From Candidatus Iainarchaeum sp. (lineage in GTDB: Archaea; Iainarchaeota; Iainarchaeia; Iainarchaeales; UBA10191): 35,388 nt of DNA. Location of the stretch: NCBI GenBank assembly GCA_043801115.1, contig JAZDMJ010000029.1, positions 1 through 35,388 of the forward strand, in the 5' to 3' direction. The notes under the pieces are model-generated. The model saw only the letters and a program-made list of their open reading frames with translations, did not search any database and was not told where the DNA came from. The position numbers were made by a program, and so were the translations under genes. Every line of letters begins with the position of its first letter. The first letter of the stretch is position 1. Below are positions 8,959 to 14,460 of the stretch, piece by piece.

Positions 8959-9498
8959 TCAATGCCCGGCCAGAAAGACGAAATGTTTCAGTTTCGCGGC
9001 GTCTTTTGCGGAAAGTTTTTTCTTTTCCACTTTGTTTCCAATCAATGCAGAGTTTCCGAACGGGTCTTTCACGATTACTGTAAAGGGAATTTTTCCTTCC
9101 TTCATGGAGTCGATTTTGGATTTCAACTGGTCGGACTTTTTGCCCGGAACTGTTGCAAGCACGGAGCGGACGCGGTCGAGCAATCCTTCCATGTTGGAAA
9201 TGTAACCGTCGGCCAACGGGCCGGGTTCAATCGTAGTGCCTAACTCTGGGATTTCAACCGTTCCCGAAGTCGAACGCACGATTTTGACTTTCAAATCCGA
9301 AGCAGAGCGCACTTTTGCTTCAAAATAGACGGGCTCATTGAAGGCGGTGTTCCAAACATCGTTCAATTTCAAACCGCAGTGCGGGCAGGAAAGCGTTGAA
9401 AGCAAGACTTCGCCGAATTGTTCGACGTTTTCGGAAACTTGCAATAAAAAAGCGGGCTTGGAACAGGAAGGACAGGGAACCGACAACTGGGGTTCCAT
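8959..9498 (-). CDS. zpr1: ZPR1-related zinc-finger protein
   Basis: CPSC and CPHC fingers; EIPELGTTIEPGP; ISNMEGLL; DPFGNS. Confidence 0.92.
   Translation of the reverse strand: MEPQLSVPCPSCSKPAFLLQVSENVEQFGEVLLSTLSCPHCGLKLNDVWNTAFNEPVYFEAKVRSASDLKVKIVRSTSGTVEIPELGTTIEPGPLADGYISNMEGLLDRVRSVLATVPGKKSDQLKSKIDSMKEGKIPFTVIVKDPFGNSALIGNKVEKKKLSAKDAAKLKHFVFLAGH
9233..9245 (+). repeat. GTAGTGCCTAACT motif, copy 1 (inside zpr1, antisense)
   Basis: Exact 13-mer also at 11418, 13175 and 14146. Confidence 0.9.
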
Positions 9499-11318: not shown

Positions 11319-12194
11319 ATGAAGGGAAAAATTGCACTCCTGGCCATACTCTTGGCCGTGCTGGCCATTGCCGCGTTTTTCTATTTTTCCCAAGCGGAGC
11401 GCGGTTCGGCCCCGAATGTAGTGCCTAACTCGTTCGACGGAAACTTGCGCGTTTGGATTTTGGACGTCAACCAGGGAGACTCCATTCTGCTCCAGCTTCC
11501 GAACGGAAAAAACATTCTCGTCGACGCGGGCCTGCCCGAGCAAGGGGAAAAAGTCGCCGCGTTTTTGAAACAGCAGGGCGTTTACAGGCTGGACGCGCTC
11601 GTCGCCACGCACTCCGACTCCGACCACATCGGGGGCATGGACGAAGTTTTGAAACAAATTCTAATTTCCGCATTTTTCGAAAACGGACGCGCGTGCGAAA
11701 CGCAAACGTGCAAGGGACTGGACGAAGTACTGGGCGAAAAACAAATTCCGCGCGCCGTGCTGAAGGGGGGAACGGATTTCAACATTGGCGGCTTTTCATT
11801 CTCTGTACTGAACCCCTGGCCGGAAGACTCTCAAACCGACAACGACGCCAGCATCGTTCTCCGCTTCGCATTCAAGAATGAAATTTTCATGCTCGCGGGA
11901 GACTGCACTTCGCTGTGCGAGCAAACCATCGAAGCGCACTTCATTGAACTGGACGTGAATGTGTTGAAAGTGGGCCACCACGGGAGCGCGTATTCTTCTT
12001 CTGCCCCCTTTTTGCAGCGCGTTTCCCCTCAATTCGCCCTCATTTCCGTCGGAGAGAACTCATACGGCCACCCTCCCCCGCAAACCATTCAACGACTGCA
12101 AGAAAGCGGAGCAACTGTTCTGCGCACGGATAAATCGGGAAACATTGAATTGAACACGGACGGAGAAATTTTGACGATTTCCCATGACAACTAA
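11319..12194 (+). CDS. Secreted ComEC/Rec2-like metallo-beta-lactamase-fold hydrolase
   Basis: LDVNQGDS, LVDAG, THSDSDHIGG, NDASIV, LKVGHHGS, SVGENSYGHP, LRTD..G; signal anchor. Confidence 0.92.
   Translation: MKGKIALLAILLAVLAIAAFFYFSQAERGSAPNVVPNSFDGNLRVWILDVNQGDSILLQLPNGKNILVDAGLPEQGEKVAAFLKQQGVYRLDALVATHSDSDHIGGMDEVLKQILISAFFENGRACETQTCKGLDEVLGEKQIPRAVLKGGTDFNIGGFSFSVLNPWPEDSQTDNDASIVLRFAFKNEIFMLAGDCTSLCEQTIEAHFIELDVNVLKVGHHGSAYSSSAPFLQRVSPQFALISVGENSYGHPPPQTIQRLQESGATVLRTDKSGNIELNTDGEILTISHDN
11418..11430 (+). repeat. GTAGTGCCTAACT motif, copy 2 (inside ComEC-like gene)
   Basis: Exact 13-mer, encoding VVPN in the linker after the signal anchor. Confidence 0.9.
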
Positions 12195-12759: not shown

Positions 12760-13163
12760 AGTGCGTGATTATTGGAAGCTTTCACCACTTTTACCAAGAA
12801 GTGGTCTATGCAAGAGAAGACTTTGAAGCGCTCGGAGTCGAAGTATTGTCTCCCGAAAAATCGCACGTCCTCGATCCAAAAGAAGATTTCATCATTCTCG
12901 GCTCGGACCCGGAAAAATTCTCCATTCGCGAGATCGAAGACGTTGTATTGGATAAGATTCCCAAAAGCGATTTCGTTTATTTAGTAAATCCTGACGGGTA
13001 TACGGGAAAGACGGCCAGTTTTGAAATCGGGGCAGCCGTGGCCGGCCAAGTTCCCGTATTCGCAAAAAGCGTTCCGGATGATGTTCTCATCAAACAGTAC
13101 ATTCTCGAAGTCGGAACGCCCGAACAAATCTTCGAAATCATGAAAAAAGCGCGCAAGCATTGA
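12756..13163 (+). CDS. Nucleoside 2'-deoxyribosyltransferase-like (flavodoxin-like fold) protein
   Basis: GTG start overlapping the upstream TGA. IIGSF...VEVLSP...KIPKSDFVYLVNPDGYTGKTASFEIGAA pattern. Confidence 0.65.
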   Translation: MKCVIIGSFHHFYQEVVYAREDFEALGVEVLSPEKSHVLDPKEDFIILGSDPEKFSIREIEDVVLDKIPKSDFVYLVNPDGYTGKTASFEIGAAVAGQVPVFAKSVPDDVLIKQYILEVGTPEQIFEIMKKARKH

Positions 13164-13166
13164 CGA

Positions 13167-13187
13167 TTTAAATTGTAGTGCCTAACT
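13167..13187 (+). promoter_or_regulatory. TATA-like box (TTTAAATT) immediately followed by GTAGTGCCTAACT motif copy 3 (13175-13187)
   Basis: The box lies ~28 nt upstream of ATG 13195. The motif sits between the box and the start codon. Confidence 0.7.
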
Positions 13188-13194
13188 AATTTGC

Positions 13195-13320
13195 ATGTAC
13201 GCGCGAAAGAAAACCGTCAAAGGGCACACTTACTACTACTTGGTTTCTTCGCACCGCGTGAACGGAAAAGTGGTCCAGCACCACGAAAAGTATTTGGGAA
13301 AAACAAAGAAGGGATTTTGA
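13195..13320 (+). CDS. 41-aa basic microprotein, predicted three-stranded beta-sheet DNA-binding domain (not in ORF track)
   Basis: MYARKKTVKGHTYYYLVSSHRVNGKVVQHHEKYLGKTKKGF*. The KxxxGxxYYYLVxSxRxxGKVxQxxxxYLG pattern recalls N-termini of IS1634-type transposases and archaeal integrase-associated domains. TATA box at canonical distance; TGA directly abuts the next ATG. Confidence 0.75.
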   Translation: MYARKKTVKGHTYYYLVSSHRVNGKVVQHHEKYLGKTKKGF

Positions 13321-14460
13321 ATGCCGGTAAACGCGGGGCCCGAATACGCGAAAGCCGAACGCAAGTACATTGACGCACGCACGCCCATGGAAAAATTGGC
13401 GGCGTTGCAGGAAATGAAGAGCACGGTTCCAAAACACAAGGGAACGGAAAATCTGCTCAAAGAAATCGTGCGAAAAATTTCCCGCATCAAGGCGGAAATG
13501 GTCAAACAAAAGGAGATGGCCGCAAAAAGGGGAAGCGGCCGAAGCGCCATGTCCGTGCGAAAGGAAGGATGCGGGCAAATCGTTTTAGCAGGATTGCCCA
13601 ATTCGGGAAAAAGCACTGCATTGCACGCATTGACGGGAATCGACGTTGAGATTGCGCCCCACCCGTATACTACGGTAAAGCCCGAAGTGGGAATGTTCGA
13701 CTTTGGCGGCGCAAGAATTCAGCTCGTCGAACTGCCCGCGGTAGTCGAAGGGAGCGCGGACGGAAAAGCGCAAGGAAACCAGGTGCTGAGCGCAGTGCGG
13801 AATTCGGACGCAATCGTTTTAGTGGTTGATGCGGAAAGCGCTCGAAAAGAAGCGCAACTGCTCGAAAAAGAACTCAAAAAGGCCGAAATATGGCTGAATC
13901 AGGCGCCGCCCAAAATCCAGATCAAAAAATCCTCCTTTCCCGGACTCTCGATTACAGGAAAAGAGCATTTGAAGATTTCCGAAAAAAACTTGTTGGAATT
14001 TTTGCGCTCCGCGGGCTACCCGCAAGCGTCTGTAACACTTGAAGAGGACGCCGACTTGGGAAAAATCGCGCAAGCATTGGACGAAAAAATCTGTTATAAA
14101 AAGGCGCTCGTCCTTGCCAACAAGAGCGAGGGCATGGAAAAAATTGTAGTGCCTAACTTCAGGGTCGTACAAGTGTCAGACTGGAACAGCGCGCACGCGC
14201 TCGAAGAAGTCAAAAGCGCGCTGTTCGCCCTGCTCGGAGTGGTTCGAGTGTACACCAAGCGTCCGGGGCAAGAGCCCGACTATCAAGAGCCGCTCGTCGC
14301 GAAAAAGGGAAGCACGGTCGAGCAAGTCGCAAAACACTTGCACAAAGAGCTTGTCCGGTCGCTCAAGTTCGTGCGCGTGTGGGGCAGCACGAAATTCGAA
14401 GGCCAGCGCGTTTCAAAGGATTATGTTTTGCACGACCAGGACATTATTGAAATCAACTAG
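13321..14460 (+). CDS. DRG/OBG-family GTP-binding protein with TGS domain
   Basis: PKHKGTE, GLPNSGKST, PYTTVKP, VYTKRPG, RVWGSTKFEGQRV...LHDQDIIEI. Confidence 0.92.
   Translation: MPVNAGPEYAKAERKYIDARTPMEKLAALQEMKSTVPKHKGTENLLKEIVRKISRIKAEMVKQKEMAAKRGSGRSAMSVRKEGCGQIVLAGLPNSGKSTALHALTGIDVEIAPHPYTTVKPEVGMFDFGGARIQLVELPAVVEGSADGKAQGNQVLSAVRNSDAIVLVVDAESARKEAQLLEKELKKAEIWLNQAPPKIQIKKSSFPGLSITGKEHLKISEKNLLEFLRSAGYPQASVTLEEDADLGKIAQALDEKICYKKALVLANKSEGMEKIVVPNFRVVQVSDWNSAHALEEVKSALFALLGVVRVYTKRPGQEPDYQEPLVAKKGSTVEQVAKHLHKELVRSLKFVRVWGSTKFEGQRVSKDYVLHDQDIIEIN
14146..14158 (+). repeat. GTAGTGCCTAACT motif, copy 4 (inside GTPase gene)
   Basis: Exact 13-mer; shares AAATT upstream with copy 3. Confidence 0.9.

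Follow-up and report, generated by a model that had tools for sequence, protein, structure and literature searches.

A 41-codon archaeal gene carrying an IS1634-type N-terminal module as a candidate minimal self-repressing switch

Relation to described systems

InsA of IS1 and OrfA of IS911 are reportedly DNA-binding-only products of insertion sequences (IS) that repress the expression of the transposase. More generally, DDE transposases are expected to bind the ends of their elements with their own N-terminal region; for the N-terminus of IS1634 transposases we know of no experimental test of binding to the ends, and none was found in a literature search. Here we describe a 41-codon gene from a stretch of 35,388 nucleotides of Candidatus Iainarchaeum sp. 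(GenBank assembly GCA_043801115.1, contig JAZDMJ010000029.1; the whole stretch is called the window). Its product is a free-standing module of the IS1634 N-terminal type, and a 13-mer, GTAGTGCCTAACT, stands between its TATA-like box and its start codon. The 13-mer lies at about −20 to −8, and archaeal repressors that block TFB/RNA polymerase recruitment usually act there, in the gap that separates the TATA box from a leaderless start. We regard it as fairly probable that the locus is a minimal self-repressing switch, in which a transposase-derived, sequence-specific DNA reader would repress its own operon, composed of the small open reading frame (ORF) and a GTPase gene. DNA binding, its specificity and the repression are what we infer from the position of the 13-mer and from comparative genomics. 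The switch would amount to a transposase DNA-binding domain that was domesticated and now works as a minimal autorepressor; its module has no family model, and its word has expanded in the genomes.

The IS1634-family transposases (IS4-like, DDE; NF033559) resemble the locus in having a homologous N-terminal module, and words of the kind seen here lie in the ends of these elements and beside the start of the transposase. Unlike them, the 41-codon gene has no DDE domain, no element bounded by inverted repeats around it and no transposase in the assembled genome. With InsA and OrfA it shares the design of a short protein that corresponds to the end-binding part of a transposase, with a site overlapping the promoter, although binding is only proposed in our case. 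Those proteins are of the helix-turn-helix or zinc-finger type and are encoded inside an active element, whereas the protein described here is predicted as an all-beta module, stands in a housekeeping chromosomal context and heads a GTPase operon.

Type II antitoxin domains and small autorepressors (AbrB/MazE swapped-hairpin, Arc/MetJ/CopG ribbon-helix-helix) are similar in their small size, in reading DNA by beta-strands and having operators at their own promoters, both proposed in our case, and in their association with toxin-type domains (Fic/Doc, Zeta, nucleotidyltransferase). They differ in that our module has no predicted helices and no ribbon-helix-helix or AbrB match in Pfam (E ≤ 1, E ≤ 10), that it lies in one chain, N-terminal to the toxin-type domain, instead of forming a separate antitoxin, and that its words are mostly asymmetric. 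The arm-type domains of tyrosine recombinases and AP2-type sheet domains (lambda Int, Tn916 Int, HPI Int) have a three-stranded antiparallel sheet, as is predicted here, and asymmetric sites of 10–13 bp, often as phased direct repeats. The module, however, has neither their supporting helix nor a sequence-family match to them, and arm-type domains appear in the Foldseek list against PDB only at ranks 31 and 48 with insignificant values (3rmp_C, E 4.7; 3jtz, E 5.6).

The small gene, its promoter and its product

The genome of the window (G000) measures 877 kb and is 85 % complete. Its family comprises four genomes (G000–G003) with completeness of 81–92 %, and G001 belongs to the same genus as G000. 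A preliminary description of the locus had listed a box, the 13-mer, an ATG, an ORF of 41 codons and a stop abutting the ATG of a GTPase, and all of these parts are present (Table 1). The stop codon of the upstream gene lies at 13161–13163, and the 31-base intergenic gap consists nearly entirely of the TATA-like box and the 13-mer, with 7 bases (AATTTGC) left between the 13-mer and the ATG at 13195. Since a TAA within the 13-mer closes the upstream frame, 13195 is the earliest possible start. The ORF translates to MYARKKTVKGHTYYYLVSSHRVNGKVVQHHEKYLGKTKKGF.

Table 1. Features of the window and words found at the promoters of stand-alone orthologues
Feature	Position or genome	Strand	Detail
13-mer copy in ZPR1-type gene (8959..9498, minus strand)	9233..9245	+	antisense to the gene; Pfam jr-ZPR1 7.1e-17
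Companion box GCGGAGC	11394..11400	+	17 nt 5′ of the 11418 copy; also at the G001 orthologue
13-mer copy in metallo-beta-lactamase-fold gene (11319..12194)	11418..11430	+	read VVPN
TATA-like box of the small-ORF promoter	13167..13174	+	TTTAAATT; read directly
13-mer, proposed operator	13175..13187	+	GTAGTGCCTAACT; about −20 to −8 from the start codon (presumed transcript start)
41-codon gene	13195..13320	+	basic protein, predicted all-beta; free-standing IS1634-type N-terminal module
DRG/Obg-type GTPase gene	13321..14460	+	probably co-transcribed with the small ORF
13-mer copy in GTPase gene	14146..14158	+	read VVPN
Orthologue promoter word	G001		GTAGTGCCTAACT
Orthologue promoter word	G002		GTAGTGCCTAACA
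Orthologue promoter word	G152		GTAGTGCCTAAAA
Orthologue promoter word	G156		GTGGTGCCTAAAA
Orthologue promoter word	G136		ATAGTGCCTAAAA
Orthologue promoter word	G057		GTAGTGACTAAAA
Orthologue promoter word	G050		CTGGTGCCTAACT (twice)
Orthologue promoter word	G034		CTGGTGCCTAAAA

The TTTAAA of the promoter begins 28 nt 5′ of the ATG (−28). Over 632 long ORFs of the genome, TATA-like hexamers peak at −31 to −27, with 17, 34, 36, 27 and 12 cases at these positions and a background of 0–8; this peak is the signature of leaderless transcripts. At this position in the promoter, G001 keeps the 13-mer exactly and G002 with one mismatch.

At its other end, the small ORF closes with TGA at 13318–13320 and the ATG of the GTPase follows directly in the same frame (TTT TGA ATG). 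The GTPase has 379 aa and matches Pfam MMR_HSR1 (7.4e-17), TGS (1.8e-14) and MMR_HSR1_Xtn. The abutment is the same in G001, with about 35 nt between both genes in G002, and it probably reflects termination-reinitiation coupling. Read-through of the single TGA would yield a module-GTPase fusion resembling the module-Fic proteins described below. The genes around the small ORF in the window are housekeeping genes.

The most economical mechanism would be the following. The 41-codon gene would be translated from a leaderless transcript, and its protein would read the 13-mer, which takes up the interval from the TATA box to the ATG. The bound protein would hinder recruitment of TFB/RNA polymerase, so that the two-gene operon of the small ORF and the DRG-type GTPase would be repressed. 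On transposases the module would serve end recognition, while on other proteins and in its free-standing form it would serve autoregulation; overall, this would be negative autoregulation by a domesticated transposase end-binding domain. Additional copies of the 13-mer may be secondary sites of the same protein.

The 41-codon ORF is a genuine, conserved and selected stand-alone gene. The orthologue in G001, a 41-codon ORF at the same place, is 88 % identical, and the 10.5 synonymous and 7.5 non-synonymous changes between the two give a ratio of non-synonymous to synonymous rates (dN/dS) of 0.15, compared to 0.10 for the neighbouring GTPase. Using phmmer on 1.84 billion representatives, we recovered 36 matches at E ≤ 1e-3, about half of them 43–83 aa long. 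Profile A3, built from 15 small stand-alone members, retrieved 1036 proteins of 22–111 aa at E ≤ 1e-3 and had matches in 95 of the 215 genomes of the class (E ≤ 1e-4). The conserved size of the stand-alone members is 40–60 aa. The homologues are labelled 'hypothetical protein' in their sources and come from Woesearchaeota, Diapherotrites and Nanoarchaeota, plus a few bacterial metagenome-assembled genomes. The 41-aa sequence itself exists as a called protein (P0001) in the protein collection and also in the ESM Atlas, where solely unnamed clusters of 46–48 aa were met. Among sequencing runs, small shares (0.06) were listed for two DNA runs and none for an RNA run, which bears on neither expression nor habitat.

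Homologues that are 50–70 % identical occur in wholly different gene contexts. The order of small ORF and GTPase is kept solely in G001 and G002 among the 17 loci searched, and no synteny with the GTPase was found outside the family among 15 further loci. In five genomes of other families (G156, G152, G136, G057 and G149; loci L054, L055, L052, L012 and L051) the small ORF lies between the gene of a PrgI-family membrane protein and a VirB4/TraG-type ATPase gene, neighbours that were confirmed by Pfam in G156. In this type-IV-secretion-like cluster, the ATPase start overlaps the stop of the small ORF.

The shortness of the ORF and its abutment with the GTPase start could also suit an untranslated stretch, conserved because the GTPase gene uses it as a regulatory RNA or 5′ leader. 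The conservation at the protein level, visible both in the dN/dS and in the homologues from different contexts, speaks against it, as does the promoter geometry, which puts the transcript start at the ATG of the ORF, and we consider this reading highly improbable. The stand-alone protein proposed in the preliminary description is supported by the selection on the ORF, by the TATA box at −28 and by its small relatives.

The same description had suggested a basic three-stranded motif. AlphaFold2, run with an alignment of homologues, predicted a three-stranded antiparallel sheet (strands 2–8, 11–22 and 25–35) and no helix, with a predicted local distance difference test (pLDDT) of 86.6. The protein contains 10 lysines and arginines and one acidic residue, with an isoelectric point of 10.2. 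A homodimer prediction (score 0.01, mark 0.42) gave evidence neither way. Pfam, NCBIfam and PADLOC yielded no credible match for the 41-aa protein or for 9 relatives. DUF6788 (PF20586) stands in the precomputed annotation of two tandem-module relatives, P0037 and P0002, which our own hmmscan did not reproduce: at E ≤ 10 there was no match to P0001, P0002 or P0037, and none was found in G000. This strongly basic module of about 37 residues is so far without a family model, and comparison of sequences suggests that it is most likely a sequence-specific DNA reader.

Regarding the link to IS1634 put forward in the preliminary description, we identified the module as the N-terminus of three IS1634-family transposases in relatives; for the archaeal integrases named there as well, the fold matches were insignificant. 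They match NF033559 at 1.2e-90, 5.2e-84 and 1.5e-44, and profile A3 recognises their first ~40 residues (G065:C126, 3.5e-10; G034:C27, 9.3e-10; G072:C60, 3.2e-7). The NF033559 matches start at residues 28–55 of these transposases. The 41-aa protein has no match to NF033559 at E ≤ 1; the DDE part is absent and the protein ends after the N-terminal module. The module also forms the N-terminus of many Fic proteins of about 320 aa, two of them in G000, of methyltransferases (Methyltransf_33), one of them in G000, of one Zeta-toxin protein and of one nucleotidyltransferase. A literature search, which covered titles and the starts of abstracts and is not a proof of absence, found no description of the IS1634 N-terminal module, the 13-mer word or the module-Fic fusions.

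The word at promoters of relatives and in IS1634 ends

Eight of the 13 intact stand-alone orthologues outside G000 keep a GTG(C/A)CTAA word, with 0–4 mismatches to the 13-mer, just 5′ of the start codon, in G000 the place between the TATA box at −28 and the ATG (Table 1). The genomes that keep it span at least five taxonomic families, and in the aligned upstream regions (n = 6) the word alone is conserved. It stays with the small ORF though the neighbourhood differs, with the PrgI/VirB4-type cluster in one case and the GTPase in the other. The shared motif that the preliminary description asked for in homologous loci was found at the same place in these eight. In G152 and G156 there is also an inverted copy of the word about 2 kb downstream of the small ORF.

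Words resembling the 13-mer and its variants are also found in IS1634 elements. One copy, which makes up a whole contig of 1.6 kb (L066), carries four copies of CCTAGTGTATAA: one in each terminal inverted repeat and two around the start of the transposase. Another copy (L099) has ACATAGTCACTAAAAA / TTTTTAGTTACTATGT as near-terminal inverted arms and a third copy at the transposase start; compared by eye, its words match those of the small ORFs of G057 and G136 in 11 of 13 bases.

Many non-transposase module genes carry a subfamily-specific GT(A/G)G-N(2-6)-TAAC word at their own TATA box. Among the paralogues in G000, one Fic gene is preceded by two copies of GGTGGTGAYAACT, and the methyltransferase gene has an inverted pair of TAGTGACTAAA around its TATA box. 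In several Fic and methyltransferase subfamilies the TATA box is flanked by a pair of the subfamily's word, either direct or inverted; the subfamily words include TGTAG(A/T)GGGTAGG with an inverted copy, TGTGGTAAC, GTAGTTATAACTAC and GTGCCCCCTAA. In 15 of 36 loci, similarity to the 13-mer in the 60 nt before the start exceeds that of 95 % of windows drawn at random from the same locus. Within 90 nt upstream, 12 of 27 module genes had exact repeats of at least 9 nt, compared to 7 of 48 controls taken from these loci (Fisher p 0.005). The GT[AG]G-N2-6-TAAC pattern, which was picked post hoc, was present in 8 of 27 compared to 1 of 48 (p 0.0009). The compared genomes are kin, so that these p-values overstate the case, which weakens our proposal to that extent.

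The situation allows another assignment of roles, in which the 13-mer is bound by a different factor, such as a module-bearing paralogue, a recombinase or an unrelated regulator, and the small protein is the product of the controlled gene with another function, for example RNA binding or an action on the GTPase. The protein and the word are linked by position and comparative genomics, and the Fic proteins of G099, G060 and G038 have nearly the same word as the 13-mer at their own promoters (GTGGTGCCTAACT and similar), so that a related module could cross-bind. The companion boxes at fixed spacing described below suggest extra binding partners, and G003 holds many copies with no stand-alone ORF detected. 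On the other hand, the promoters of each module subfamily carry a word particular to that subfamily, a pattern seen in several taxonomic families. The word also occurs in IS1634 ends, where the N-terminal region of the transposase is expected to bind, and it accompanies the small ORF through the change of neighbourhood. Altogether, we consider a different binding factor unlikely.

Further copies of the word

In the window we found four exact copies of the 13-mer, all on the plus strand (Table 1). Shuffled windows had a mean of 0.12 copies even with up to two mismatches allowed, and four copies were reached in 0 of 100 shuffles. The whole of G000 contains seven exact copies and three with one mismatch, compared to zero copies of the reversed control word, and four of the seven exact copies lie within 5 kb around the small gene. 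In the four genomes of the family we counted 7, 11, 28 and 29 copies, and in 54 of 57 other genomes of the order there was none; the reversed control was absent everywhere. A second family has a variant of its own, T(G/A)GTGCCTAA(A/C), in 38 and 27 copies (reversed control 0), and three further genomes have just 2–3 copies.

The copies in the window are not equally conserved. The copy at 11418 is exact at the orthologous place in G001, with flanks about 68 % identical. The copy at 9233 is antisense in its gene, so the orientation of the word is independent of the gene strand; no homologue of this region was found in the fetched loci of relatives. Copies within genes always read VVPN or LGTT, a coincidence of reading frames that we rejected as trivial, as just three of the six frames are stop-free. 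The preliminary description had proposed that the protein coats sites 1–4 kb around the gene. Although the sites do cluster there, G001 conserves just two of them, at the promoter and at 11418, and the claim was not supported in this form.

Adjacent copies along contigs are on the same strand in 40 pairs and on opposite strands in 4 (19 and 4 for copies at least 300 nt apart), counts made by hand from the list of copies and inflated by tandem arrays. Such arrays occur in G003 and G002 with spacings of 22 and 44–45 nt, and a spacing of 67 nt is also found; those of G003 lie at contig ends, as repeats do. Among 78 copies of the family, a box GCGGAGC stands 17–19 nt upstream in 6 and GCTCCGC 16–18 nt downstream in 13. 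In G003 and G002 they form a composite word-N18-GCTCCGC-N6-7-word with a period of 44–45 nt. Sites of composite elements are the 11418 copy with its box (Table 1), C4:2896 and C12:8804/8824 in G000, and loci L032, L036–L042 and L048.

We also considered the arrays as CRISPR-like or coding repeats, and rejected both by eye: the 'spacers' measure 17–18 nt, and the periods (22, 44 and 45 nt) do not run in multiples of three. An explanation of the word and companion segments by tRNA or another known RNA was dropped as well, as ARAGORN and Rfam gave ordinary tRNAs nearby, none overlapping the words.

Several other sequences were noticed near the words. In L043 (G002:C49:1-10000) and L035 (G003:C102) the arrays stand beside a tRNA gene (found in L035), PRC-barrel and tyrosine-recombinase genes and two ORFs of 140 and about 200 aa. 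The orientation of the word flips in this stretch of G002, and two copies lie in the 5′ end of the recombinase gene. The stretch may be an integrated element or a chromosomal landmark. In G034 (loci L078–L087) the variant CCTGGTGCCTAAA forms pairs with a spacing of exactly 47 nt that enclose a conserved box, ttttCCCTCTgaaaa, and the pairs are often 45–90 nt 5′ of genes. A segment of about 60–70 nt (GGCCCTTGCGTGAGCCGGCGACGC...CCATCTTCGC...GCTCGATG) occurs five times in G000 (C13:8052, C22:12420, C43:220, C75:20183 and C83:186); two of these copies abut tRNA-like sequence, and in G001 the segment follows the distal 13-mer. A related segment in G050 is flanked by a word variant, and words there flank repeated segments of 54–220 nt (loci with such segments: L029 and L088–L092). 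Rfam returned no family for the related copies scanned in the G001 and G050 loci. Finally, the 16-mer AAAAGCCCGGGGAAAA is present seven times in G000 (e.g. C4:10863, C16:2265 and C27:3605), each time after a pairable GGCCTTTT-like sequence, and these units are possibly terminator-like hairpins.

The distribution of copies raises the question of a chromosome-level site system, centromere-like or polar architectural, in which the word and the small protein would mark co-oriented sites and phased arrays instead of or besides acting as a promoter switch. It would fit the clustering of exact copies around the gene of the protein, the coherent orientation within contigs independent of gene strand, the flip beside the tRNA-adjacent recombinase gene in G002, the array spacings with fixed companion boxes, the 47-nt pairs in the second family and the absence of a TATA box at most copies. 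Against it stand the low number of copies (2 to 38 among genomes having the protein), the inflation of the orientation count, the lack of a partner ATPase or segregation gene beside the ORF, and G003, which has arrays and no detected stand-alone ORF; the contigs are also too short to follow long-range polarity. We think that such a role is decidedly unlikely. A broader scenario is a programmable reader of GT(A/G)G-N-TAAC that began on IS1634 transposases and spread in DPANN to Fic, Zeta, nucleotidyltransferase and methyltransferase proteins as a built-in autoregulator. At least two lineages would then have recruited its free-standing form and tens of co-oriented phased words for a site system that spans the chromosome, has the gene of the protein at its centre and is centromere-like, polar or architectural. 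We offer this as a speculation with a small chance of being right.

One more possibility is that the locus represents a relic, a decaying IS1634 fragment (N-terminal stub) with scattered remnants of inverted repeats or miniature inverted-repeat transposable elements (MITEs) and no present function. The module and the type of word are common to IS1634 elements, the arrays of G003 are at contig ends and the words of G050 flank repeated segments. However, the ORF is under purifying selection, its size is conserved and its small relatives are numerous. No IS1634 transposase was found in the four family genomes, at their completeness of 81–92 %, and G000 had no match to NF033559 at E ≤ 0.001; this speaks against live MITEs. 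In G034 the IS1634 copies do not carry the expanded word of that genome, and in-frame copies are located inside conserved housekeeping genes, one of them kept at the orthologous site in G001. A relic therefore appears very unlikely. These data agree with the preliminary description, which had seen neither a transposase body nor terminal repeats: the transposase is missing from G000 and its three relatives, and no inverted pair of 13-mers, all four of which share one strand, flanks the ORF.

Returning to the self-repressing switch, several observations weigh against it. Neither the fold nor the sequence gave a significant match to any solved DNA-binding fold: Foldseek against PDB had 0 matches at E ≤ 0.001, the profile search of PDB by sequence 0 at E ≤ 10, and the best VIA-align wide Z of 3.7 was insignificant. 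An asymmetric site of 13 bp is long for one monomer of 41 residues, and the companion boxes suggest a larger nucleoprotein complex or a second factor. No recognisable word was present in 5 of the 13 stand-alone orthologues (G149, G143, G012, G051 and G007), and the shared words could partly reflect common descent of a cassette of promoter plus gene. In G003 we counted 29 copies, and its assembly, at a completeness of 81 %, yielded no stand-alone ORF. G001 does not conserve the 14146 copy: 5 of 13 bases differ there, and one codon changes between Ser and Val. Either the G000 lineage gained the site or G001 lost it, and the difference shows that copies of the word turn over within a genus. Only 9 of the 78 copies of the family have a TATA-like hexamer just upstream, so most copies are not such operators, and a simple regulon was rejected on this ground. 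Outside the promoters of the small ORFs in G000, G001 and G002, the combination of TATA box, word and start is practically absent.

Few DNA-binding proteins indeed are known from these organisms. Should the module bind its word, the two would be among the smallest self-contained protein-operator pairs known, with 41 residues and 13 bp, and the recognition of DNA by a three-stranded sheet could be studied along the natural series of subfamily-specific words. The self-repressing switch, if true, would clearly exemplify, in a prokaryote, how the end-binding domain of a transposase became a host regulator. It would also give a function to more than 1000 unnamed small proteins and would explain the N-termini of many Fic, Zeta, nucleotidyltransferase and methyltransferase proteins of DPANN, whose regulators are almost unknown. 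The expansions of the word, with 7–38 co-oriented copies, phased arrays and companion boxes, may point to a genome-organising role.

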